Below are positions 1-16,070 of a DNA stretch of 29,701 nucleotides, piece after piece. The number at the start of each line of letters is the position of its first letter. Position 1 is the stretch's first letter. The position numbers and the translations under genes were made by a program. The stretch comes from a virus (lineage: Duplodnaviria > Caudoviricetes): positions 1 through 29,701 of IMG/VR virus record IMGVR_UViG_3300038974_000405. The stretch is one strand, 5' to 3'. The notes beneath the pieces are model-generated. The model saw nothing but the letters and a program-made list of their open reading frames with translations, was not told the origin of the DNA and did not search any database.

Positions 1-11
1 TTAAATTATTT

Positions 12-707
12 ATGAATGGTGAAGCTATTAGTTTTAAGCTTGGACTTATTAAAGTAAATTATAAACGATATCATGTTCCTAACTGTTATAAACTTGTTTT
101 CTTTGAAGAAGATACTAATTTTTATTACTCTTCTACTCTTTATTCTGGTGGTAAAACTGGTTTTGGCATTAACTTATACGATTATGAAGCTATTCATAAT
201 CGAGTAGATGAAGATTTTGAAATTATTACAAGAGATCCTTTTGAAGCTATTTCTCTTTATGACACACTTATGGAGAAAGCTAATGAAGAATACATGACTA
301 AGAGAAATAATGAAACAAGGAGAATTAAAGAAGAAGTTTATGATGTTCTTATTAAAGAATTTAGCAACTATAAGTTTTTTGTTGATTCTGAAGAAGCAAA
401 AACGGGATTTTTTGTTAAGTTTGGAGTAGATTATAATAATGTTTCTAAGCGTCTAGATTATTTTGTTGTTTTTGGATACGATGCTCATGGAAATGAAAAA
501 GTTTTTGGAGATGTTGATGACTATTTCACAAAGAGTGGAAACGCTAGAGTTAGTAAGATAGCTGACGAAGCTAAAATTTGTAATATTTATCCTGAAAAAG
601 AGTTTGTTAAAACTATGAAAAAAGCTAAGAAGATCGCTGAGAAGATGATATTTCATTTTAATAATAGACATAATACTCTTCTTAATGAAGTTAAGTCTAC
701 ATTTTAA
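12..707 (+). CDS. hypothetical phage protein
   Basis: 231-aa ORF followed by a clear intrinsic terminator; no motif recognised. Confidence 0.75.
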   Translation: MNGEAISFKLGLIKVNYKRYHVPNCYKLVFFEEDTNFYYSSTLYSGGKTGFGINLYDYEAIHNRVDEDFEIITRDPFEAISLYDTLMEKANEEYMTKRNNETRRIKEEVYDVLIKEFSNYKFFVDSEEAKTGFFVKFGVDYNNVSKRLDYFVVFGYDAHGNEKVFGDVDDYFTKSGNARVSKIADEAKICNIYPEKEFVKTMKKAKKIAEKMIFHFNNRHNTLLNEVKSTF

Positions 708-732
708 TTAGTTAAAATATAAAATAAATTTT

Positions 733-765
733 AAAAACTGCTCTTAAGTAAAAGAGCAGTTTTTT
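733..765 (+). terminator. Rho-independent terminator (possibly bidirectional)
   Basis: AAAAACTGCTCTT-aagtaa-AAGAGCAGTTTTT perfect inverted repeat ending in a T-tract, downstream of ORF 12..707. Confidence 0.85.
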
Positions 766-842
766 CTTTTCTTGCTTATTGTTAAAACTAAATTTAAAAA
801 AGATAGGTTTAATAAACTAGTAAGAAAAGGGGCATTTTAATT

Positions 843-1361
843 ATGTCTGTATCAACTAAATTAAATATTCTTAAATCATTTTTATCTCCTATATTTAATA
901 CTGCAAAAAATGTTATAACAACTACAGTAACAGATACTGGTAAAGTTGCTGTTATTTCTAAAGATGCTTTTGTAAATTTTACAGAAAAATACAAAGGTAT
1001 TAGAAGAATTATTTTAGTTATCGTTTTATGGATTAATATACATATATTTTTTGTGACATCTAAAATGTATCAATTACATAATCAAATTGATACACAATGG
1101 ATTATTTATGCTGGTTATTGGACAGCTATATTAGGAACATTTATAGGATTTTATACTGTTTCTAGAGTTAAAGAATTTAATTCAGAGACTGATTTAGCTC
1201 CTAAAGGTGAATGGTTAGCAGACGTAAATAAAGAACAAAAAGAAACTGATAAAATTAAAAAGGTTGCAGAAGGAATGATTGAAGAATCATTTGTTGAAGA
1301 AAGAATAGAAATAGATGGAGACTCTTTAATAGAAGGAGAAATGACTAATGGATCGCAATAA
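843..1361 (+). CDS. two-TM membrane protein, putative holin
   Basis: Two hydrophobic segments (RRIILVIVLWINIHIFFV; WIIYAGYWTAILGTFIGFYTV), charged C-terminal tail, SD AAGGGG upstream, overlaps a TM/coiled-coil gene. Holin role is inferred. Confidence 0.5.
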   Translation: MSVSTKLNILKSFLSPIFNTAKNVITTTVTDTGKVAVISKDAFVNFTEKYKGIRRIILVIVLWINIHIFFVTSKMYQLHNQIDTQWIIYAGYWTAILGTFIGFYTVSRVKEFNSETDLAPKGEWLADVNKEQKETDKIKKVAEGMIEESFVEERIEIDGDSLIEGEMTNGSQ

Positions 1362-1713
1362 AATAAAAGAATTTTTTAAAAATATTTGGGAATGGCTAGT
1401 TGTTATAGTTCTATTTATTTCAGGTTATTTTATATGGTCTCATTTTTTTAAAAAGACTGTAGCTGAAAAGAAAATTTTAAATGATATAAAACAAAACAAT
1501 GAAGAAATAAAAGAATTAGAAAAATTAGTAGACCAACATAAAGAAAAAGAAAAAGAATTAGAAAAAAAGGAAAAAGAAATAACAGAAAAAATAGTTAATA
1601 AAGAAAAAGAAATTGCTGAAAAAGAAAAAGAATTTGAAGAAAAGAAAAAGAAGGTAGAAGAAGAAAGTAATGATACTTCTTCTAATATTGATTATCTAAA
1701 TAAAAAATATTAA
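1348..1713 (+). CDS. N-terminal TM plus coiled-coil protein, i-spanin (Rz)-like architecture
   Basis: TM WEWLVVIVLFISGYFIW then a long K/E-rich coiled coil; SD AAGGAG; overlaps the putative holin. Confidence 0.5.
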   Translation: MDRNKIKEFFKNIWEWLVVIVLFISGYFIWSHFFKKTVAEKKILNDIKQNNEEIKELEKLVDQHKEKEKELEKKEKEITEKIVNKEKEIAEKEKEFEEKKKKVEEESNDTSSNIDYLNKKY

Positions 1714-1718
1714 AAAAC

Positions 1719-2168
1719 ATGACAAATTATCATTCTCAATTTAGAGGAGATTTAGCTTTTTTAAGTAATATGTATCCATGCCATTTTACTATTGACGATA
1801 TAGATTATTCTTCCGTCGAACATTATTTTCAATCAATGAAAACTAGTAATGTTGAAGAAAAAAAATCTATTATTGAAACTGAATCACCAGTTGAAGCTAA
1901 AAAACTAGGTAAAAAAGTGACGTTAAGAAAAGATTGGGAAGTAATAAAAGATATAGTTATGTTTGATGGTGTTTTTGCTAAATTTAAACAAAATGAAAAA
2001 TTAGCAAATAAATTGATTCATATAGATGATTCTCTTTTAATAGAAAAAAACAGTTGGGGAGATAGATATTGGGGTGTTGATTATAACACTGGCATTGGTT
2101 TAAATAAATTAGGTAAAATATTGAAAAAAGTAAAAATGTTATTATTACTTTCTAATCTCAAAAAATAA
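1719..2168 (+). CDS. NADAR (YbiA-like) family hydrolase
   Basis: Family motifs in order: FLSNMY, SVEHYFQ, AKKLG, LRKDWE, AKFKQN, LIE-x-NSWGDRYWG, GLNKLGKIL. Confidence 0.92.
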   Translation: MTNYHSQFRGDLAFLSNMYPCHFTIDDIDYSSVEHYFQSMKTSNVEEKKSIIETESPVEAKKLGKKVTLRKDWEVIKDIVMFDGVFAKFKQNEKLANKLIHIDDSLLIEKNSWGDRYWGVDYNTGIGLNKLGKILKKVKMLLLLSNLKK

Positions 2169-2190
2169 TTATTTATGGACGTGATAAGCT

Positions 2191-3744
2191 TTGAATTTTT
2201 TAGAAAATATAAATATTTTATTAGCTAAATTACATAAAAAAGATAAAGATTTTTATGTTCAAATTAGAAAAGAAGCAGCTAAAGAAGAATTATATAAAAA
2301 AATACAAGATGAATATGATACATTTTTTGGTAAACGTAAAACTCGTTTGTATTTAAAACTTGAAAATTTAAAAATGAATGATGTAATTGGTTTAGATAAA
2401 GATATGATAGATGTTATGAATAGAATTAATACAATATTTTATAATTATGTAAAAAATTTTAAAATAATATCTGCTGAAGATTTTATAGATAATTTAGCTA
2501 CAGGTGAATCTGGAAGAAAAATAAAAATAGGTAAACTCTTAGAAAAAATTAAAACTTCAAAAGACTTGTATGATGATGAAGCTGAAGTAAATTATTTAAT
2601 AAAAAAATTCAATCAAAGGCCATCAAAGAATGTTTTAAAAGTTATTAAAAACGTTCAATTGTATGCTGTAATTTCTAGATCTGCTGAAGATGTAGCTGGT
2701 ATGTCATCTGATAGACGTTGGACGTCTTGTATGAGATTGCCAGGTTATAAAAATACTTCTAAGTATGAGTATAAAGACGATGGCGGAGATTACTATTCAG
2801 TTTTAGAAAGTGATATTAAATACGGAACTTTAGTAGCTTATCTAATAAGAGAAGATGATAGAAATATAGAAGATCCATTAGCTAGAATTTCTATTAAACC
2901 ATATTTCAATATTGTTAAAGATGATACAAATGTTGCTAATATGTATTTATTACCAGAAAAAAAGATATATAGCGATAGTACTTTAACACAGTCAATTCTT
3001 TTAGCTTTTCATAATAAAGTAAACGAATTTTTTGAAAATGTAAATAAAAATAAAGTGGGATATTTTGAAATTCCAGTTGAATTATATCCAGATACTAATC
3101 CTACTAGAATTTCTAAAGTAGATGAATCTGTTTATAATGAAATGCAAAAAAATGGCTTTGATGTTCAACTTTTAAAAAGCTGTTTTAATGATAGAATAGA
3201 TGAATATACATTTCAAAAATACGCTAAAATAGTTTATTCTATGTTTAAAAAAGATAAAAATCATCATTTAATTAAATCAATAAAAAATGGTTGTTTTTAT
3301 AGAATTACTAAAATTGATGAATCAAACTTGTCTTGTGATAAAATAGTTGGAGAATTTGGTGATCCAAACTTTAACTTTTTTGCTAATACTGTTAAAGATT
3401 CTGTATTTAATGGCGGTTATTTAGCAACTTCTTATTTAGTTAATTCTACTATTAAAAGCGGTTCTTTAGTAGAAATTTATCAAGATAGTAAAAGTTCTAT
3501 ATTTGAACCTAATACAACATTAATACCATCTGATTCTTCTGCTGTTTTAACTAATTGGATTTATGCAGGTAATGAATGGTATGGTGGAAAATTATATTCT
3601 AAAAAATTTGAAAAATTTATTACAACTAAGAATTCTACAATACCAAATAGTTTTTCTTTGCCCGATTTTTATACTAAACAGCTTCATGCTTATACATTTG
3701 AATATTTTGTTGAAAGTTTAGGAGATAGTATTAATAATGAATAA
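2191..3744 (+). CDS. hypothetical protein, paralogue A (AGMSxDRRWxSCM family)
   Basis: 517 aa, TTG start with SD GGACGTGA; shares SRxAEDxAGMSxDRRWxSCM and GTLVAYLIRxDDxxIEDPLARIxIKP with the next gene. Confidence 0.85.
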   Translation: MNFLENINILLAKLHKKDKDFYVQIRKEAAKEELYKKIQDEYDTFFGKRKTRLYLKLENLKMNDVIGLDKDMIDVMNRINTIFYNYVKNFKIISAEDFIDNLATGESGRKIKIGKLLEKIKTSKDLYDDEAEVNYLIKKFNQRPSKNVLKVIKNVQLYAVISRSAEDVAGMSSDRRWTSCMRLPGYKNTSKYEYKDDGGDYYSVLESDIKYGTLVAYLIREDDRNIEDPLARISIKPYFNIVKDDTNVANMYLLPEKKIYSDSTLTQSILLAFHNKVNEFFENVNKNKVGYFEIPVELYPDTNPTRISKVDESVYNEMQKNGFDVQLLKSCFNDRIDEYTFQKYAKIVYSMFKKDKNHHLIKSIKNGCFYRITKIDESNLSCDKIVGEFGDPNFNFFANTVKDSVFNGGYLATSYLVNSTIKSGSLVEIYQDSKSSIFEPNTTLIPSDSSAVLTNWIYAGNEWYGGKLYSKKFEKFITTKNSTIPNSFSLPDFYTKQLHAYTFEYFVESLGDSINNE

Positions 3745-5527
3745 TTTTTTAAAACAAATTAATATTTTGTTAGCTGCATTAAAACCTGAAGATATAGAAA
3801 AATTTACTGAAATACAACTTAGCGCAGAAACCATTTTTAAAGTAAAAAGCAGATATGATCATTTATTTGGTTCTGATGATAGATATTATATTGATGTAGA
3901 TAATATAAAAATTGAAGATTATAGTTATTTATTAGAACAAAAATATAAAGAAAATTTTTTTAACATAAATGAAGAATTAAAATGGCATGGTTATAAAATA
4001 AAAAATGCTGAAATGTATTTAAAAGGTAAAGCTAACAAATTAGATAAAGAAACAAGAACTTTTAAAGAACCTAAAGATGATCCTAAGAATTTAGAATCAA
4101 TAGATAAAATTTTAACAAGTGTAATAAATAAAGAAATTGAAAGAGACTATCTTCCTCAATTAAAAATAGTAAAAGAATATATTTTTAATGAAGATATAAT
4201 AAAAATTTTAAATGATGAAAGTTTAAATGATAGTAAAAAAATAGTCTCTTTGCATAAAATTTTTAGAAATACTCGCCTTAAAGAAATATTTGAAGAAGAT
4301 TTTTTTAATACACATAGGGATGACGATATAGATCAATTTGTAAATATTTTAATAGATACTTCTAGTTTAATAAATATGAAATCTATTTATAGTTCTAGAC
4401 CCTCTTTAAAAAGTCTACAGAATGACAGAAATTTAATGATAGTTGTATCTAGAAAAGCTGAAGATATTGCAGGAATGTCTACTGATAGAAGATGGAAATC
4501 GTGCATGGAATTGCCTGGTTATGATAAAAATAAAATGTTTGGTGGATCTTTTCATTCTCGTTTATTTTATGATATAAAACTTGGTACTTTAGTAGCTTAT
4601 TTAATTAGAAAAGATGATAAAGAAATAGAAGATCCATTAGCTAGAATAGCTATTAAGCCGATGTTTAGCACAGATGATGCTATTAGTTACTCTATTATTA
4701 AAATATTAGAAAAAGAAGATTTTAAAGATATAAATAGTTTATCCGACGAAGAAAAAAGTTTAGTAGAAAAATTTAAAAATACAGAATTCGTTTTTTACTT
4801 AAGACCTGAAAAACAAGTGTATTCAGACGGTTCTTTACCAGCAAATGTATTAAATAAATTTAAAGAAGAAGTTATTAAATTTTGTCACAGCCATAATAAA
4901 AATACTGAAGGTGCTTTTGAATTAAGTGAACTTCTTTATAATGATACTGGTAATTCTATTGAATATATAGTTAAAGACGAAAAAATTAAAGAAAAATTTA
5001 AAAAATTAGCTAAAAATTTTAATAACAAATATTTAGATGAAAATGATGCGTTTGAAATTTTGTTGTCTTGGTATTTTTCTTTTGGAAAAGATATTAATAA
5101 TTGGCTGTTTAAAGCAATTGAAAATAAAAAAATAGATGTATCTATTATTATGGTAAATGGAAAACTCATTACAATAGAAGCAAATAATATGAAAGATATT
5201 ACTATCAAAAATGAAAATTTCTACGGCAATAATTTGAATATTACATTAGAAAATTATTGTGATAATTGCAATTTTGAAAATATTTCTAGAATTGTTGTTA
5301 AAAATGCATTTAATTCATCTTTTGATAATTGCACTCTTTCTGGCGGAAATTACAGAAATTGCCACATAACAAACTGCGAATTTATGAGAAATATATATGT
5401 GTATTCTAATAAATTTAAAGACTATATGTTCTGTAAAATTAATACTGATAAATTTTTAGAAATAGAACAAAAATCTGATACTAAAGAACATTTTAGAATT
5501 AATCTTTCTAAAGAGTTTAAAAAATAA
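3737..5527 (+). CDS. hypothetical protein, paralogue B with C-terminal beta-solenoid-like repeats
   Basis: 596 aa, SD AGGAG; same conserved core as 2191..3744; C-terminal roughly 5-residue periodicity (CDNCNFEN...NSSFDNCTLSGGNYRNCHITNC). Confidence 0.85.
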   Translation: MNNFLKQINILLAALKPEDIEKFTEIQLSAETIFKVKSRYDHLFGSDDRYYIDVDNIKIEDYSYLLEQKYKENFFNINEELKWHGYKIKNAEMYLKGKANKLDKETRTFKEPKDDPKNLESIDKILTSVINKEIERDYLPQLKIVKEYIFNEDIIKILNDESLNDSKKIVSLHKIFRNTRLKEIFEEDFFNTHRDDDIDQFVNILIDTSSLINMKSIYSSRPSLKSLQNDRNLMIVVSRKAEDIAGMSTDRRWKSCMELPGYDKNKMFGGSFHSRLFYDIKLGTLVAYLIRKDDKEIEDPLARIAIKPMFSTDDAISYSIIKILEKEDFKDINSLSDEEKSLVEKFKNTEFVFYLRPEKQVYSDGSLPANVLNKFKEEVIKFCHSHNKNTEGAFELSELLYNDTGNSIEYIVKDEKIKEKFKKLAKNFNNKYLDENDAFEILLSWYFSFGKDINNWLFKAIENKKIDVSIIMVNGKLITIEANNMKDITIKNENFYGNNLNITLENYCDNCNFENISRIVVKNAFNSSFDNCTLSGGNYRNCHITNCEFMRNIYVYSNKFKDYMFCKINTDKFLEIEQKSDTKEHFRINLSKEFKK

Positions 5528-5540
5528 AAAGTAAATAACT

Positions 5541-5678
5541 ATGAATAATATATTAACAAATATTAATAAAATTCTTGATTTAGCTATAATATCTAGAAGA
5601 TCACCAGAAAGAAAAGAACAATTTGCTAAATATGACATAAATAATAAACTGATAGCTAAAAGAGATCAGTTTAATTAA
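5541..5678 (+). CDS. unannotated 45-aa ORF sharing the paralogues' N-terminal leader (small protein or gene relic)
   Basis: Translated by hand: MNNILTNINKILDLAIISRRSPERKEQFAKYDINNKLIAKRDQFN*. It fills the gap between flanking genes and its N-terminus resembles MNNFLKQINILLA. No clear SD. Confidence 0.55.
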   Translation: MNNILTNINKILDLAIISRRSPERKEQFAKYDINNKLIAKRDQFN

Positions 5679-5697
5679 ATTAAGGAGAATTAATTAA

Positions 5698-6069
5698 ATG
5701 GATAATTTTGAAATGGCAAAAAAATTAGCTAAAGAAAAACAATGTATAGTTTCAGAATCTAATGAATCTTTAACAGAAGAACCTGAAAATCTAAATGTAG
5801 AAACAGAAGACATGTCTAGATTAATATCTAGTTTAATAGAAGAATTAGAAGCTGTTAATTTTTATGAACAAAGATCTATAGCTTCTGAAGATGAAAGTAT
5901 TATTAATTTAATGATTCACAATAGAGATGAAGAAATTGAACACGCTGCTATGATTATAGAAGAAATTAGAAAGAGAAATGAAGTCTGGAATAAATCTTTA
6001 AAAGAATTTCTATTTAAAGATAATTCTGAAGTAGTTGAAGTAGAAGAAGAAAAAACATTTACAGATTAA
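5698..6069 (+). CDS. encapsulated-ferritin-like protein (EncFtn/Flp family)
   Basis: SLIEELEAVNFYEQR and HNRDEEIEHAAM ferroxidase motifs plus WNKSLKEFLF, matching the EncFtn pattern; strong SD TAAGGAG. Confidence 0.9.
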   Translation: MDNFEMAKKLAKEKQCIVSESNESLTEEPENLNVETEDMSRLISSLIEELEAVNFYEQRSIASEDESIINLMIHNRDEEIEHAAMIIEEIRKRNEVWNKSLKEFLFKDNSEVVEVEEEKTFTD

Positions 6070-6086
6070 ACATTTTATGTTATAAT
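6058..6086 (+). promoter_or_regulatory. sigma70/sigmaA-type promoter with extended -10
   Basis: TTTACA (6058-6063), 17-nt spacer, TATAAT (6081-6086), preceded by TATG-n. Confidence 0.75.
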
Positions 6087-6114
6087 ATAAAAAATTATAA
6101 GAGGATTGTGATAA

Positions 6115-6873
6115 ATGATGGAAGATAATGATAGAATTGAAAATTTTATTACTGACAATATTTTAGATGACTGTGACGTTGTAGAAAATATTTTAGGAAT
6201 TAATAGTTTAAAACCATGGCAAAGAAAGTTAATTGAAGTATTTTTTAATGAAAGGTTTATTGTAGTTAATAAAACACAACATGTTAATTCTAAAAGTTTT
6301 ATTTCTAAATTAGCATTTTCTTTATTTGTAAAAGAAGAAAATTTTAAAATTTTAATACTAGTAGATAGTTTAAAGTCTTTAAGAACATTTTATGATTTAA
6401 TCTTTGAAACTTTTAGAACTTATAATTATAATATGAATTATTTTAATTCTTACGGCATAGATTATCACGATAAAAATTTCATTTTAGAAATAAAAAATAA
6501 AGATAGCAATGATACGAATGAAATTGAAGTCACAGTCGATCCTAAAAAATGTTTAAATAAAAATTACGATTTATTAATTATTGATGACGCAGCATATATA
6601 GAAGATATTAAAAATAAATATGATTATTTAGTACCTAATCATATAAATTATGATAATGTATTTAAACCGTATGGTATTGTAATTTGCAGTGAAATGAATA
6701 ATTTTTCTGATGACCTTAGAAAAGGCGTAATGGGAAATTGGTTTAGTTCATGTTGGAATGACGCTATTAATTTTTGTAATGATTTTATTCCAATTTATGT
6801 AGCTAAAGATAACGATAAAGAAATAGAAAACGAAGATTATTTTCTATTTAGGGAGGATGATTATTTAGATTGA
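6115..6873 (+). CDS. degenerate terminase large-subunit ATPase-like protein (no nuclease domain)
   Basis: Q-motif-like LKPWQRKLI, RFIVVNK leading into a corrupted Walker A (KTQHVNSKS), Walker B-like LLIIDDAAYI, coupling-motif-like IVICS; only 252 aa. Confidence 0.65.
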   Translation: MMEDNDRIENFITDNILDDCDVVENILGINSLKPWQRKLIEVFFNERFIVVNKTQHVNSKSFISKLAFSLFVKEENFKILILVDSLKSLRTFYDLIFETFRTYNYNMNYFNSYGIDYHDKNFILEIKNKDSNDTNEIEVTVDPKKCLNKNYDLLIIDDAAYIEDIKNKYDYLVPNHINYDNVFKPYGIVICSEMNNFSDDLRKGVMGNWFSSCWNDAINFCNDFIPIYVAKDNDKEIENEDYFLFREDDYLD

Positions 6874-7370
6874 AAAAAATATTAACAATAATTATAATTA
6901 GCTTTTTACTATTATTTAGTCTTGTTATTTCTGCAGATTCTAAAGAAAAACCAGCTTCTTATGATCTAAAAAATGGTTATATTGCAGTAAGAAGTGATGT
7001 ATTTAATAAATTAGTTGAAAATGATAAACTTTTAGAAATTTATAAAGAAGAAGCTAAATACTATAAAGAATCTTTATCTGAGCTAAAAGAATTGCAGTCT
7101 GAAAGGTTTACGATACAAGATCAAAGAATATTTGTTTTAAAAGAAACAGTAGCAGTAAAAGATGATATAATAGCATTAAAAGACAAAAATGCAGAAAATT
7201 ATAAATCTTTATATGATATTAAATCTGCTGAAGTTAGAACTTTAAAAAGAAAAACTTTATTAGATAAACTTCTTGTGTTAGGAATTGGCGCTTATGGTAT
7301 TTCTCAAATAGATGATACAGGTGGTCAAGTAGCAGTTGGTGCAGCTACTTTATCATTTATTTTGAAATGA
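6870..7370 (+). CDS. exported coiled-coil protein with C-terminal hydrophobic hairpin
   Basis: Signal peptide MKKILTIIIISFLLLFSLVISA, helical coiled-coil middle, Gly-rich hydrophobic C-terminus; SD GGAGG, TTG start overlapping the upstream TGA. Confidence 0.75.
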   Translation: MKKILTIIIISFLLLFSLVISADSKEKPASYDLKNGYIAVRSDVFNKLVENDKLLEIYKEEAKYYKESLSELKELQSERFTIQDQRIFVLKETVAVKDDIIALKDKNAENYKSLYDIKSAEVRTLKRKTLLDKLLVLGIGAYGISQIDDTGGQVAVGAATLSFILK

Positions 7371-7386
7371 AATTATTAAAAAAGTT

Positions 7387-7418
7387 AAAAAGATCGATAG
7401 GTTTATCGATCTTTTTTT
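7387..7418. terminator. bidirectional Rho-independent terminator
   Basis: AAAAAGATCGATA-ggtt-TATCGATCTTTTTTT between convergent genes. Confidence 0.88.
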
Positions 7419-7421
7419 AAT

Positions 7422-7625
7422 TTAAATTATTCTAATTTTTAAAGTATTATCTGTCCTATAAATTCCGCCGATTGGAACTCCTCCAGCTTCAGCTGCGGCA
7501 TCGTCGGCATATTCATTTATTACAAAAACTATAGGTGAAGTAGCAAATAACCCTCCCCATTTTTTGTCAGATCTGCCTAATGAACCTTCGCCATCTTCTC
7601 TTGGTACTATTCTTCTTGTTGCCAT
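7422..7625 (-). CDS. small putative virion protein built from fibre-type motifs
   Basis: 67 aa, non-overlapping, SD GAGGAAGGTG, higher GC than its flanks, ends at a terminator. MATRRIVPREDGEGSLG..KKW and YADDAAAEAGGVPIGGIYRT resemble motifs I recall from phage fibre proteins. Confidence 0.7.
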   Translation of the reverse strand: MATRRIVPREDGEGSLGRSDKKWGGLFATSPIVFVINEYADDAAAEAGGVPIGGIYRTDNTLKIRII

Positions 7626-7664
7626 AATTTAACACCTTCCTCTTTTTAATTAATTTATATAGTA

Positions 7665-7693
7665 TTTACTTTTTAAGTTGTTTGTGATATAAT
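7665..7693 (+). promoter_or_regulatory. sigma70/sigmaA-type promoter with extended -10
   Basis: TTTACT (7665-7670), 17 nt, TATAAT (7688-7693), preceded by TGTG-n. Confidence 0.75.
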
Positions 7694-7746
7694 TATTAAT
7701 AATAAATTTTTATTTATTGCTATTTTATTGTATGGGGGAATTATAT

Positions 7747-8712
7747 GTGTCAAAATTAAATAAAAAAATTAAAAAACCAAATTATTTTTCTGAAAAAGAT
7801 ATTGTAAATTTAGTAAGTGATTATAAAATAAATAAAAATAATATTACTTTTCAAAAAATGTCAAAACCAATAGAACAAATGATTGAAGGTATGATTAATA
7901 AAGAATTTTATTTTAACGATATTGTTAAAAATAATAAATCAGATATTAAATCAGAATGTTTTGTTGAAATATTAAAATCATTAGAAAATTACGATCCTGA
8001 AAGGGGTCGTGTATTTGCATATTTAAATAGAATAGTAAAAAATACAATATTGCGCTGTTATAATAAAAATAAAAAAATAAATAATAAAGAAATGACATAT
8101 ACTAATTTTTCAAAGAATCAAAATGAAGAAATTGACGATGATATTGTATTAAACTTAGGAAGCTATGATTATCATAATGAAGAAACATTTTCAGAACAAG
8201 AAACTATTCAATCGATTGGTTCAAAAAAGTCTTTATCTTCTCAAGAATCATATTATGTTATTTATCATTATATTAAACAATTGAAAGACAATATTATAAT
8301 TTATATTAATGATTCAGAATTAAGAGAGAAATTACTTGAAGATATTAAATCAGATGCAAATGTAGTTTTTGATTTTTCTAAATATTCTCAAACAAATTTA
8401 TTGACAGATAAATTAGTTTTTTCCAGAATACTATCATATTTAAATATAACTTTGTCTAAATTAATAAAATGGATAGAAAAAAATCATTTAAAATGTCTTT
8501 CTATAGAACCAATTTCATTTAATGCTAGGATTCAACAAAGAACTATTAATACGATTAAAAACTATGTTAATGAATTTATTTCTCATAGCAAATTAACTAG
8601 TTACTATTCTATTGAAGATATGATACAATTAATAAGATATATCATGGATAGAAATATAAAATACGACATAGTAGCGGGTGATATTGTTGTTGCAGAAGTA
8701 CAACTTGATTAA
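7747..8712 (+). CDS. phage RNA polymerase sigma factor (gp55-like, region 2)
   Basis: NYFSEKDI...DIKSECFVEILKSLENYDPERGRVFAYLNRIVKNTI matches the sigma region 2 / T4 gp55 pattern. Start reassigned from TTG 7717 to GTG 7747 because of SD GGGGGA at 7734-7739. Confidence 0.72.
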   Translation: MSKLNKKIKKPNYFSEKDIVNLVSDYKINKNNITFQKMSKPIEQMIEGMINKEFYFNDIVKNNKSDIKSECFVEILKSLENYDPERGRVFAYLNRIVKNTILRCYNKNKKINNKEMTYTNFSKNQNEEIDDDIVLNLGSYDYHNEETFSEQETIQSIGSKKSLSSQESYYVIYHYIKQLKDNIIIYINDSELREKLLEDIKSDANVVFDFSKYSQTNLLTDKLVFSRILSYLNITLSKLIKWIEKNHLKCLSIEPISFNARIQQRTINTIKNYVNEFISHSKLTSYYSIEDMIQLIRYIMDRNIKYDIVAGDIVVAEVQLD

Positions 8713-13253: not shown

Positions 13254-16070
13254 TTGGCTGAAACAAATTTAATTGCAGCAATAGAAAAATTACTTAATAA
13301 AAAATTTAGCGATAAGAAAGTCTCAGCTACAGACATTATAAAAAAATATGAAAATTTAACTGGAAATAAATTTGAACTAGATGATGTGAAAGAAGAAATT
13401 TTAGATTTTGTTATTTATGCTAAAGAAAAAATAATAGAATTTACAGATAAAACTGTATATTCCGCTGAAAAATTAGAAGATTCTTTTAAAAAAATAAGTA
13501 ATGTAAATTTAGATAAGTCTTTGCAAATGACATCTAATTCTTCAATTGAATTGTTAAGAACTAGTTTTAGTAAAATAAATAATATAGTTGTTTCATCTAC
13601 TAAAAGTATGTTTACTTATGGAACTAATATTATAAAAGGTTTTTTTAGCGACATTTCTAAAAAAACAGATTCAATGCTATCAAATATATTTACGCCTTTA
13701 AAAAATATGTTAGCTACTGTTTTAGTACCTTTTAAAATGATAGGAACTTTTTTCTCTGGTATGAAAACATTATTTTCTACTGGCATAAAAGGATTATTTG
13801 GTGGAGATTTATTTACTAGTGAAAAAGATGAAAAAGATAATGATAGAGCTGGAATAACTAAAAAAGTTTTAGGTGAAAATTTAATTTTAAAACGAACTTC
13901 TGTTGGTATTGCAATTGCATGGTTATGGAAACAAATGAATAAAAACGGTAGTGGAGGTTTAGGAGGAGCAAATTCTAGCGATGGTATATTAGAAACTGCT
14001 AAAGATATTGCATTATTAACATCAGCTGGAGGAATAAAAGGTTTTCTAAAAAAAATTGGTTTATTTACTTTTAAAGCTGCTGGGGCTGCAGGTTTAGCTT
14101 ATAGTTTATTTAATGTTGGATCTAATGTTTATGATTATTTTAATGAAACTAATCCCGAAAAAAAGCAAACTGCAGGTGAAAAAACGTTAGGTAGCGGTGC
14201 TGTGACAGCTGCTTCAATGTCATTAGCTTTAATACCTGGAGTTGGTTTACCTGCTGCTATGATAGTTTCAGGTATAGCCAACGCTTTAATGACTCCTGAA
14301 ATGGAAGAAAAAATAGGAGAATCTATTCTTTATGTTTATAATGGTGCTATTGATTTAGCTAAAAGAGCTTGGGAAGCTATACCAACATGGGAAGAATTTA
14401 AAACTTCTATTTATGAAGGTTATGATAAATATATTGGTAAACCATTAGGAGATTTAGGAACTAATATATCTAACTGGTTATCAGGTATAAGAAATAAAAT
14501 AAGCACTTGGTGGGATGGCGCTGTTAAATGGTGGGATAGTTTATGGGAAGAATTTAAAACTTCTATTTATGAAGGTTATGATAAATATATTGGTAAACCA
14601 TTAGGAGATTTAGGAACTAATATATCTAACTGGTTATCAGGTATAAGAAATAAAATAAGCACTTGGTGGGATGGCGCTGTTAAATGGTGGGATAGTTTAT
14701 GGGAAGATTCTAAAACTATAGAGCAAAAAAAGAATGATCATTTAGAAGATTTAGAAACTGCTTTTGATCCTTATAATTTGAGCAAAAACAATCAAAAAAT
14801 TTCTGAAGAAATTGCATTAAAAGAAAAAAACGCATTAGAATTAGGAAATGCTGTATTAAAAAAAGAACTTGAAATAACAAAACAAACAGCTTCTAATATG
14901 GAAGAAAAAAATCAAATAGATAAGAATATTAATGAATCTGTAGTTAAATTTTCAGAAACTGCAGAAAATTTAAATAAACCATTAAAAGATTTTACTGAAG
15001 AAATTAAAAGAAATACTGAATTATCAGCTACTAGTAGTTTTTTTAATAATGTTTCAAAAGCTTTATCGGGTTCTGGTGGAAGAGTTGGCAGCTCAGGTAG
15101 CGGAGGAACATATACTGGTAGCTATTCTACTCCATTAATATCGGCTACTGGTAGTATTATGTTTACGCAAGGAAGATTAAAAGGTAAAAAATTTGATAAT
15201 TTTGAAGATGCATTAGCTACTTTAATTTCAAGAAGCGAAGGCGGATTTTCATCTGTTAATAGAAATGATTCTGATTCTGGAGTATCTTTAGGTTTTGGAC
15301 AATGGAATAGTGAAAGAGCTAGAGATTTATTATTAAGAATGCAAAAACAAGATCCTAATAGTTTTAATTCTATGATGGGTGAAAGACTTGTTAAAGCATT
15401 GGAAGATCCTTCTAGATGGGCAACTGGTAAGGGAACACATAAATACGCGTTTTCTATAGATGAACAGCGCGCTTTTGCAAAATTAGCTTCTAGAGGAGAT
15501 ATGCAACAAGTACAAGTTGAAAAAATGAGACAAGATATGAAAACATATTTTGCAGAAACTGATAAACTAAAAATTACTGATATGAGAGCTAAAATGTTTT
15601 TTGCAGATTTAAGACATCAATATGGTTTAGGAGGAGCTAAAAAACTTATTGGCGACTCTAGAACATTAGAAGATATGTATGAAAGAGTAAAAAATACTCA
15701 GTATAGTAAAAGAAGAGGAGAGGTATATAGAGATTTATTAAGTTTACAAGAATTAGAGAAAAAAACTAAAGAGGTCGAAGTAAAAGCGCATAAAGTAGAA
15801 CCTGTTAATATTCAAAATAAAGAAGCAGAAGAACGAGGTAAAACATATAAAACTTTAGCAGAAGCTGTTTCTAAATTACAAATTTCTTTTGATAAAAGCG
15901 CCAAAAAAGATGATGCTAATATTACAAAAATACAAACAACAGATAATTCTACCGTTATTAGCAATTCATCTCAAGATGATTCAGATAGAATACCAAATCA
16001 AATTATGAGTTATGTTTTTGGCGTTAATGCTGGTGGAAATGATACTTTAAATATATTAGGTTCTGAATAG
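13254..16070 (+). CDS. tape measure protein with lysozyme-like domain
   Basis: 938 aa, helical with periodic W/F, Gly/Ala-rich hydrophobic segments; SRSEGGFSSVNRNDSDSGVSLGFGQW muramidase-like motif; first gene of the baseplate operon; SD AGGAG. Confidence 0.8.
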   Translation: MAETNLIAAIEKLLNKKFSDKKVSATDIIKKYENLTGNKFELDDVKEEILDFVIYAKEKIIEFTDKTVYSAEKLEDSFKKISNVNLDKSLQMTSNSSIELLRTSFSKINNIVVSSTKSMFTYGTNIIKGFFSDISKKTDSMLSNIFTPLKNMLATVLVPFKMIGTFFSGMKTLFSTGIKGLFGGDLFTSEKDEKDNDRAGITKKVLGENLILKRTSVGIAIAWLWKQMNKNGSGGLGGANSSDGILETAKDIALLTSAGGIKGFLKKIGLFTFKAAGAAGLAYSLFNVGSNVYDYFNETNPEKKQTAGEKTLGSGAVTAASMSLALIPGVGLPAAMIVSGIANALMTPEMEEKIGESILYVYNGAIDLAKRAWEAIPTWEEFKTSIYEGYDKYIGKPLGDLGTNISNWLSGIRNKISTWWDGAVKWWDSLWEEFKTSIYEGYDKYIGKPLGDLGTNISNWLSGIRNKISTWWDGAVKWWDSLWEDSKTIEQKKNDHLEDLETAFDPYNLSKNNQKISEEIALKEKNALELGNAVLKKELEITKQTASNMEEKNQIDKNINESVVKFSETAENLNKPLKDFTEEIKRNTELSATSSFFNNVSKALSGSGGRVGSSGSGGTYTGSYSTPLISATGSIMFTQGRLKGKKFDNFEDALATLISRSEGGFSSVNRNDSDSGVSLGFGQWNSERARDLLLRMQKQDPNSFNSMMGERLVKALEDPSRWATGKGTHKYAFSIDEQRAFAKLASRGDMQQVQVEKMRQDMKTYFAETDKLKITDMRAKMFFADLRHQYGLGGAKKLIGDSRTLEDMYERVKNTQYSKRRGEVYRDLLSLQELEKKTKEVEVKAHKVEPVNIQNKEAEERGKTYKTLAEAVSKLQISFDKSAKKDDANITKIQTTDNSTVISNSSQDDSDRIPNQIMSYVFGVNAGGNDTLNILGSE
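14387..14707 (+). repeat. perfect in-frame tandem duplication, 2 x 156 bp plus 9 bp
   Basis: Copies start at 14387 and 14543 and are identical by eye; ATGGGAAGA recurs at 14699. Confidence 0.95.

Follow-up and report, generated by a model that had tools for sequence, protein, structure and literature searches.

The gene at positions 5698–6069 of the window, the 29,701-nucleotide stretch of DNA analysed here, is, as judged from its sequence, an accessory phage gene of long residence that encodes a short EncFtn-type protein whose di-iron site is complete. Its new element appears in sequence comparison as a conserved, phage-specific N-terminal helix carried on a variable linker. The protein is somewhat likely to be a ferroxidase working free in the infected cell, where it would lower Fe(II). 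A sequence-only reading of this DNA had proposed an undescribed system, an encapsulin-cargo ferritin with neither loading tail nor shell; the free ferroxidase remains the best candidate interpretation, but the absence of tail and shell is not undescribed. Tail-less relatives (s-FLPs) and phage genes of the ferritin superfamily (Dps, Mn-catalase) are already known. A literature search covering the main text of papers, with few subscription articles among them, found no published EncFtn-type gene in a phage, and a search of the same scope found no published genome census of shell-less s-FLPs.

The window is the whole of a 29.7-kb virus record and derives from a T4-like myovirus of low GC whose genes include those for a sigma factor, a helicase, and baseplate proteins. 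The features discussed below are as follows.

2191..3744, + strand: leader-bearing paralog 1; three related phages have its homolog immediately behind the major capsid gene
3737..5527, + strand: leader-bearing paralog 2, included in the leader comparison
5541..5678, + strand: 45-aa ORF with the array leader (I-N-x-I-L); its leader score of 11.9 exceeds that of every one of the 727 background N-termini
5682..5687, + strand: ribosome-binding site AAGGAG, 10 nt before the ATG of the 5698 ORF
5698..6069, + strand: EncFtn-like (PF22277) short ferritin-like gene; 123 aa, without a C-terminal targeting peptide
5698..5739, + strand: phage-clade N-terminal helix, residues 1–14; motif F-x-x-A-x-x-[LM]-A-K; predicted helix 3–14 with pLDDT about 74
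5740..5808, + strand: variable linker and start of the core, residues 15–37; 2/23 positions invariant, pLDDT below 50 at residues 15–20
5839..5865, + strand: E48-E49-x-E51 and Y56, comprising the entry site, a ferroxidase-centre Glu, and the conserved Tyr
5917..5943, + strand: H74-x3-E78-E79-x-E81-H82, the equivalents of ferroxidase-centre E62 and H65 plus outer sites; invariant in the clade
6016..6066, + strand: short acidic C-terminus; 0/17 positions invariant, low pLDDT
6058..6086, + strand: sigma-70-type promoter-like site with extended -10 (TTTACA-17-TATAAT plus TG), a consensus match only
6115..6873, + strand: degenerate paralog of the large-terminase ATPase domain; 200 aa align with the terminase of the related phage G001 at 24% identity (E 3e-17)
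7387..7416, no strand: bidirectional terminator-like hairpin that ends the + strand block

The protein matches the Pfam EncFtn-like family PF22277 at 100.3 bits (cut-off 27; E 5.1e-29), scores 90.2 bits against TIGR04535, under its cut-off of 125, reaches none of the EncB-family cut-offs, and has no match among PHROG families. Among solved structures, the closest are those of H. ochraceum EncFtn, N. europaea NE0167, and R. rubrum EncFtn (E 4e-20 to 3e-17). The sequence-only reading had described the metal sites as complete, and an ungapped alignment to R. rubrum EncFtn (5da5, offset 17) agrees, with all nine R. rubrum metal-site residues present. R. rubrum E31, E32, E34, and Y39 correspond to phage E48, E49, E51, and Y56, and H57, E61, E62, E64, and H65 to H74, E78, E79, E81, and H82; the ferroxidase-centre ligands E32, E62, and H65, together with Y39, are thereby matched by E49, E79, H82, and Y56. 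The HXXXEE62XEH65 motif and these residue names are given in the accessible text of PMC11202242, and the R. rubrum residues are also named in the corresponding text of 10.1101/063495. Phage position 38 is a Phe, where aligned EncFtn chains have Trp or Leu. Across the 32-sequence phage clade, all nine metal-site residues are invariant, and the ligands are also kept in the more distant P0121. This invariance, down to 58% identity, reflects purifying selection on the catalytic site.

The protein ends in EVEEEKTFTD, as had been read earlier, and the loading motif [LF]x[VI]G[ST][LI] does not occur anywhere in it. The extension of about 20 aa reported for the N-terminus also stands, as the homologous core begins at residue 20–25. 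A monomer model predicts helix 3–14, a disordered linker, three core helices (34–62, 66–93, and 95–105, at high pLDDT), and a disordered C-terminus. The closest known class is the s-FLP, exemplified by N. europaea NE0167 (PDB 3k6c; E 3.6e-19), which has the same two-helix half-ferritin core and ligands and no C-terminal peptide. Like s-FLPs, the phage protein exceeds the PF22277 cut-off and has two long helices, a short one, and a short C-terminus. It differs in length, since s-FLPs have about 95–100 aa and no N-extension, whereas the phage protein has 123 aa with an extra 20-aa N-terminus that holds the conserved helix. The FLP-TP encapsulated ferritins (R. rubrum Rru_A0973, 5da5; H. ochraceum, 5n5f/7oe2; TIGR04535) share its ferroxidase centre, entry site, and outer sites; they carry a linker, an LxIGSL peptide, and an adjacent encapsulin gene, none of which accompanies the phage gene. 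Residues 1–14 have a net charge of +1 and the whole protein −19, and Dps-like DNA binding through a basic N-terminal tail was rejected on these values.

As the sequence-only reading noted, the −35 element of a promoter-like site lies in the last codons of the gene. With 11/12 consensus matches and TG, the site at 6058–6086 recurs in 2/200 shuffles of positions 1–8000, exceeding chance, is kept in the related locus L001, and would serve the downstream genes. Sites with 9–10/12 matches are no more frequent than chance predicts (53 found, 63.7 expected), and one of them, at 5563–5590, was therefore discounted. A hairpin at 5645–5697 ahead of the ribosome-binding site, with a weak AU stem around that site (z −2.4), could be a translation gate for the gene.

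The locus is phage DNA and not a chimera of host and phage. A homolog search found 277 proteins, of which the best 120 were compared; the best 32 form a clade with 58–93% identity and a common N-terminal extension, and the DNA context of this clade was followed in the window and three further members (L001, L002, and L003). In two of these, L001 (82%) and L002 (61%), the gene is flanked by phage genes of the kind found in the window, and L002 also has the terminase paralog downstream, in a more intact form. In the window, this paralog is a stand-alone gene with an altered Walker A and a retained Walker B motif, behind the strong promoter-like site. Contigs from other studies span 5873–7693 and 5439–6029, and the gene has a GC of 0.25 and a GC3 of 0.09, matching the phage core genes. 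Chimera-like records do occur in the family: L003 (25–633) is fused to a LysR substrate domain in GC-richer DNA and looks misassembled, and in P0027, on an 810-bp contig, a phage-type front runs into a tailed cellular end, with the switch at the most conserved motif. Both mosaics are probably assembly joins. That host DNA was joined to the phage contig by misassembly, a refutation raised in the sequence-only reading, is nevertheless a negligible prospect here, and the independent contigs led to its rejection. A joint in run X2 that skips 5536–6071 was likewise rejected as a gene-less allele, as it has only 24 nt on one side.

PF22277 is absent from all four complete related phages (G001, G002, G085, and G087), whose helicases are 62–73% identical to that of the window and which are syntenic with it from the sigma gene on; the gene is thus accessory. 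A tblastn search found no relative of the protein among INPHARED phages. IMG/VR scans with the single protein or with alignment A2 returned none, and alignment A4 found two, so these scans are not exhaustive. An independent tail-less EncFtn-like gene lies at L307:5923–6267 in the complete 363-kb jumbo phage G090, which has no PF04454 gene. This copy has non-structural gene neighbours, its own N-extension, and two outer-site changes, E34 to Ala and E64 to Asp. Sequencing runs that contain the window (20 rows, 13 studies, one a possible source of the record) come with habitat labels that include bioreactor, anaerobic digester, wastewater, sludge, landfill, and aquatic. The host is identified neither by the helicase, whose matches in cultured phages do not exceed 32% identity, nor by trees, which leave the donor unfixed.

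Tail-less and shell-less relatives are common, so this combination is neither phage-specific nor undescribed. A GTDB scan, with loci picked by patterns from the phage alignment, confirmed 178 relatives, and the best 80 were compared after classing their tails by the number of residues that follow the EExEH motif (short, 31–42; long, 53–71). Sixty-two are short (31–42), 17 are long (53–64), and one is cut; the phage protein has 41 such residues, within the range of the tail-less cellular relatives. The targeting-peptide motif is found in 12 of the 17 long-tailed loci, with variant ends in the other five. An encapsulin gene lies within 470 bp of all 17 long-tailed loci and, as far as the available flanking DNA extends, beside none of the 62 short-tailed ones. 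On the scale of whole genomes, the Family 1 encapsulin PF04454 occurs in 0/62 short-tailed genomes, which are mostly MAGs, carry no completeness values, and include many close kin, versus 16/16 long-tailed genomes. The latter count omits L230, a second locus of the L188 genome, and becomes 15/15 without the unpublished G081; the genome of the cut locus also has PF04454. The split holds across GTDB loci L172–L251 (genomes G006–G084), where short-tailed loci have no Family 1 shell and long-tailed loci are always beside one. The Family 2 shell PF19307 was detected in 1/20 short-tailed genomes tested, and a PF00210 ferritin or Dps exceeded its cut-off in 20/30 genomes tested.

Metagenomes give the same division. 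Among 77 cellular metagenome loci, 65 are short and without a shell gene (at least 900 bp downstream being available for 43 of them), 11 are tailed and all have a shell gene, and one is cut. The peptide motif is also absent from 75 of the 88 non-clade proteins among the best 120 of the 277 homologs. Within the phage clade, 31/32 proteins lack the peptide. No shell gene lies beside the phage gene, whose neighbours on both sides are known, and the claim that the window encodes no encapsulin is upheld for the 29 ORFs of the 29.7-kb record, in which PF04454 was not found and which amount to one third of the phage (CheckV, 35% complete). What does not survive is the suggestion that loss of tail and shell is particular to the phage, since its best matches are equally tail-less.

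Several EncFtn-like domain fusions were also seen (P0229, P0144, P0211, and P0142), with unknown C-terminal regions, an encapsulin-like region, or a membrane-anchor-like N-terminus in front.

Judging from sequence, s-FLPs appear largely encapsulin-independent, which suggests a widespread shell-free class of EncFtn-like proteins. The tail-less class was named in PMC11202242, the available part of which leaves encapsulation open, and the 62/62 s-FLP genomes without a Family 1 encapsulin bear on that question. Non-targeted Flps near archaeal encapsulin operons are described in the accessible text of 10.1101/085266. The 'encapsulated ferritin' thus seems to have a widespread shell-free form.

The phage copies form a clade with full support (100/100) on a long branch, and their sister group varies with the method. 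FastTree (105 rows) places the clade beside the long-tailed P0079 with a support of 0.84, IQ-TREE (37 rows) places it beside the short P0035 (91/81), and AU tests left both a long-tailed and a Caldisericota sister acceptable (p 0.40 each). Phylogeny had been expected to give a clue to the host, and these discordant placements provide none. The nearest cores by identity are short in 14/14 cases for the window protein and in 12/14 for P0030. From such sequence comparisons, the phage plausibly captured a gene that had no tail to begin with; the tail may also have been lost within the phage lineage itself.

The N-terminal helix distinguishes the phage clade. Its F-x-x-A-x-x-[LM]-A-K motif occurs in all 34 clade sequences, including the divergent P0121 (49% identity), in which a Gly-rich linker is about 20 aa longer, and in 0/255 other homologs and 0/758 ORFs of related phages. 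In 32 clade sequences, 7/13 positions of the helix are invariant, compared with 31/69 in the core and 2/23 in the linker, so the helix is as conserved as the core while the linker varies. This pattern indicates that the helix is under selection. The possibility that it is a tag common to other phage proteins was rejected: all three IMG/VR hits to the helix pattern are internal to other proteins, and the best other N-terminus among related phages scores 12, versus 40–45. From its sequence and placement, the helix may be a head-loading signal.

The leader-bearing genes noticed upstream in the sequence-only reading are real. A leader, I-N-x-[IL]-L, is common to the ORFs at 2191, 3737, and 5541, the last of which, directly upstream of the ferritin-like gene, is probably a remnant of an array member or a small member itself; the ferritin-like gene stands at the end of this array. 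Neither Pfam nor PHROG has a match for the 2191/3737 family, and for the leader-bearing protein the ESM Atlas yielded nothing usable; in other phages, the family bears other lineage-specific leaders. The window's leader is likewise lineage-specific and sits on tandem genes that are unrelated to one another (window 2191–5678; L252–L255; L001). In G002, G086, and G087, such genes with this leader immediately follow the one for the major capsid protein, and in G085 they form an array elsewhere. By analogy with the capsid-targeting sequences of T4, which are 10–20 aa long according to the available text of PMC5694885, the array proteins are probably internal head proteins. A T4-type prohead protease is present in relatives, and the capsid proteins of 5/5 relatives carry L-[LM]-A-D at residue 47–52, a pattern noticed after the fact, at which a T4-like propeptide would be cut. 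As a separate observation, the major capsid genes of G001, G002, G086, and G087 (e.g. L168:6976–10218) are interrupted after the N-terminal 60–90 codons by endonuclease ORFs, as for a mobile intron; the capsid gene of G085 is intact.

The proposed mechanism begins with assembly into the decamer ring of EncFtn, which homology would predict. Such a ring would oxidise Fe(II) free in the cell without a shell, and the smaller Fe(II) pool would reduce Fenton damage in the infected host, to the putative benefit of the phage. The host would be anaerobic, if run habitats only are a guide, and the gene would be expressed during infection. RNA-library contigs cover it in two studies, although X6 covers 29/30 bins and may be DNA. 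The accessible text of 10.1101/063495 reports that R. rubrum EncFtn without its tail is an active ferroxidase in the absence of a shell in vitro, and that shell-free EncFtn precipitates Fe(III), each decamer binding only about 48 Fe. A protein behaving in this way would serve to clear Fe(II), not to store iron, and, given the Fe(III) precipitation by free EncFtn, protection without a shell is putative. The available text of PMC8008677 describes Dps and Mn-catalase genes in phages of anaerobes, proposed for the same purpose. The N-helix is likely to bind a partner or to pack at the central channel of the ring, towards which the N-termini of EncFtn are directed. Left unexplained by the free-ferroxidase reading are the conserved 14-residue helix and the position of the gene, which directly follows an array-family or leader-bearing gene in 3/3 phage loci (window, L001, and L002).

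Both features bear on the main rival to the free ferroxidase, a possible but doubtful one, in which the N-helix is a capsid-targeting propeptide, the ferroxidase is loaded into the prohead, and the helix is cut off after L-A. A head-loaded enzyme would shield the packaged DNA against iron, or else be injected when the phage infects; a shell-free EncFtn would conceivably have been given its own N-terminal address, and an HK97-fold head might then carry a ferroxidase known as encapsulin cargo. The gene position fits this proposal, as do the placement of the leader array after the major capsid gene in three relatives and a helix whose 14 aa, attached to a variable linker, match T4 capsid-targeting sequences in size (PMC5694885, available text). 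The helix also ends in [LM]-A-K at residues 10–12, like the commonest leader ending, a likeness noticed after the fact; the L-A-K tripeptide occurs at residues 8–16 in 5/727 background ORFs and is all that the helix has in common with the leader. [LM]-A-K fits two of the three positions of the inferred hydrophobic-hydrophobic-Ala protease site, the protease specificity itself being putative, and the capsid L-[LM]-A-D pattern points the same way if it is indeed a cut site. Against head loading, the helix is at background when compared with the phage's own leader, scoring −9.1 where the background mean is −8.6. Sixteen left-out leader members score 8.6–31.2, a range biased upward since members were chosen by motif. 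Ungapped, all five clade N-termini tested fall within the background (14–55% of which is as high), and allowing one gap brings only P0013 of the five into the top 2%. The helix lacks the leader's I-N and first hydrophobic residues, which the adjoining 45-aa ORF has, and its restriction to this one ORF among related phages, with every IMG/VR match internal, also argues against a shared head address. Both G085 and the window have the array apart from the head operon, and the window block also includes NADAR and the terminase-derived gene. Head targeting by the leader is itself a deduction, and the phage's own capsid and protease genes lie outside the 35%-complete record. Like the T4 internal head proteins (IPI–III and Alt), the protein has a short N-terminal extension and is encoded in a T4-like phage beside leader-bearing genes; those proteins have a capsid-targeting sequence, whereas this extension does not match its phage's shared leader. 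For the head packaging suggested in the sequence-only reading, gene position and helix conservation speak in favour, and the background-level score against the phage's own leader speaks against.

Two further explanations are less probable. The gene could be a passenger in a hypervariable array, or its product a non-catalytic, metal-stabilised oligomer that presents the N-helix to a partner; its accessory distribution and its neighbours, a remnant-like 45-aa ORF and a degenerate terminase paralog, are consistent with this, but ligands that are all invariant in the clade to 58% identity and kept in P0121 make it unlikely. Co-assembly with host EncFtn, by which the protein would be carried into or disturb the host's encapsulin iron store, is very unlikely. 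Mixed rings are conceivable, with core helices about 50% identical to those of cellular EncFtn, and the phage-type front and tailed end of P0027 could reflect recombination. P0027 is nonetheless a single sequence whose switch point resembles an assembly join, and most near relatives come from genomes without encapsulin. The interference with host encapsulin proposed earlier finds no support, because the phage protein has no loading peptide and its host is not identified.

If the free-ferroxidase reading is right, an EncFtn-type ferroxidase would join the iron and oxidative-stress genes carried by phages. In the available texts, these include Dps and Mn-catalase genes of 'Gratiaviridae' and other gut phages (PMC8008677), likewise accessory and proposed for the same purpose, a Dps-like gene of Lactobacillus myoviruses (PMC6669764), and a myxophage ferritin (10.64898/2026.09.14.751636). 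Like such genes, the gene at 5698 has phage neighbours in independent assemblies and a patchy distribution. In contrast to them, it belongs to another family, PF22277, whose members form an open ring with no storage cavity, and its product would be unable to store iron itself. Should the N-helix instead load the enzyme into the head, the phage would offer a test case for the proposal, made in the accessible text of PMC13669383, that procapsids are possible hosts of cargo enzymes and biochemical compartments; the procapsid would then be an iron-handling compartment, or the enzyme would be delivered with the DNA.

Some minor observations concern the surrounding genes. In G085, homologs of three membrane-protein genes of the window (843–1713 and 6870–7370) cluster about a gene for glycoside hydrolase 108, which suggests that in the window the array was inserted into a lysis cassette. 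One of these genes, at 1348–1713, has a weak Rz-like spanin match, a hint of a two-membrane host at the level of sequence. A tape-measure-like protein encoded at 13254–16070 contains a near-exact internal repeat of ~55 residues, and an IS200 transposase lies at L001:2988–3272, just past the start of the downstream gene.
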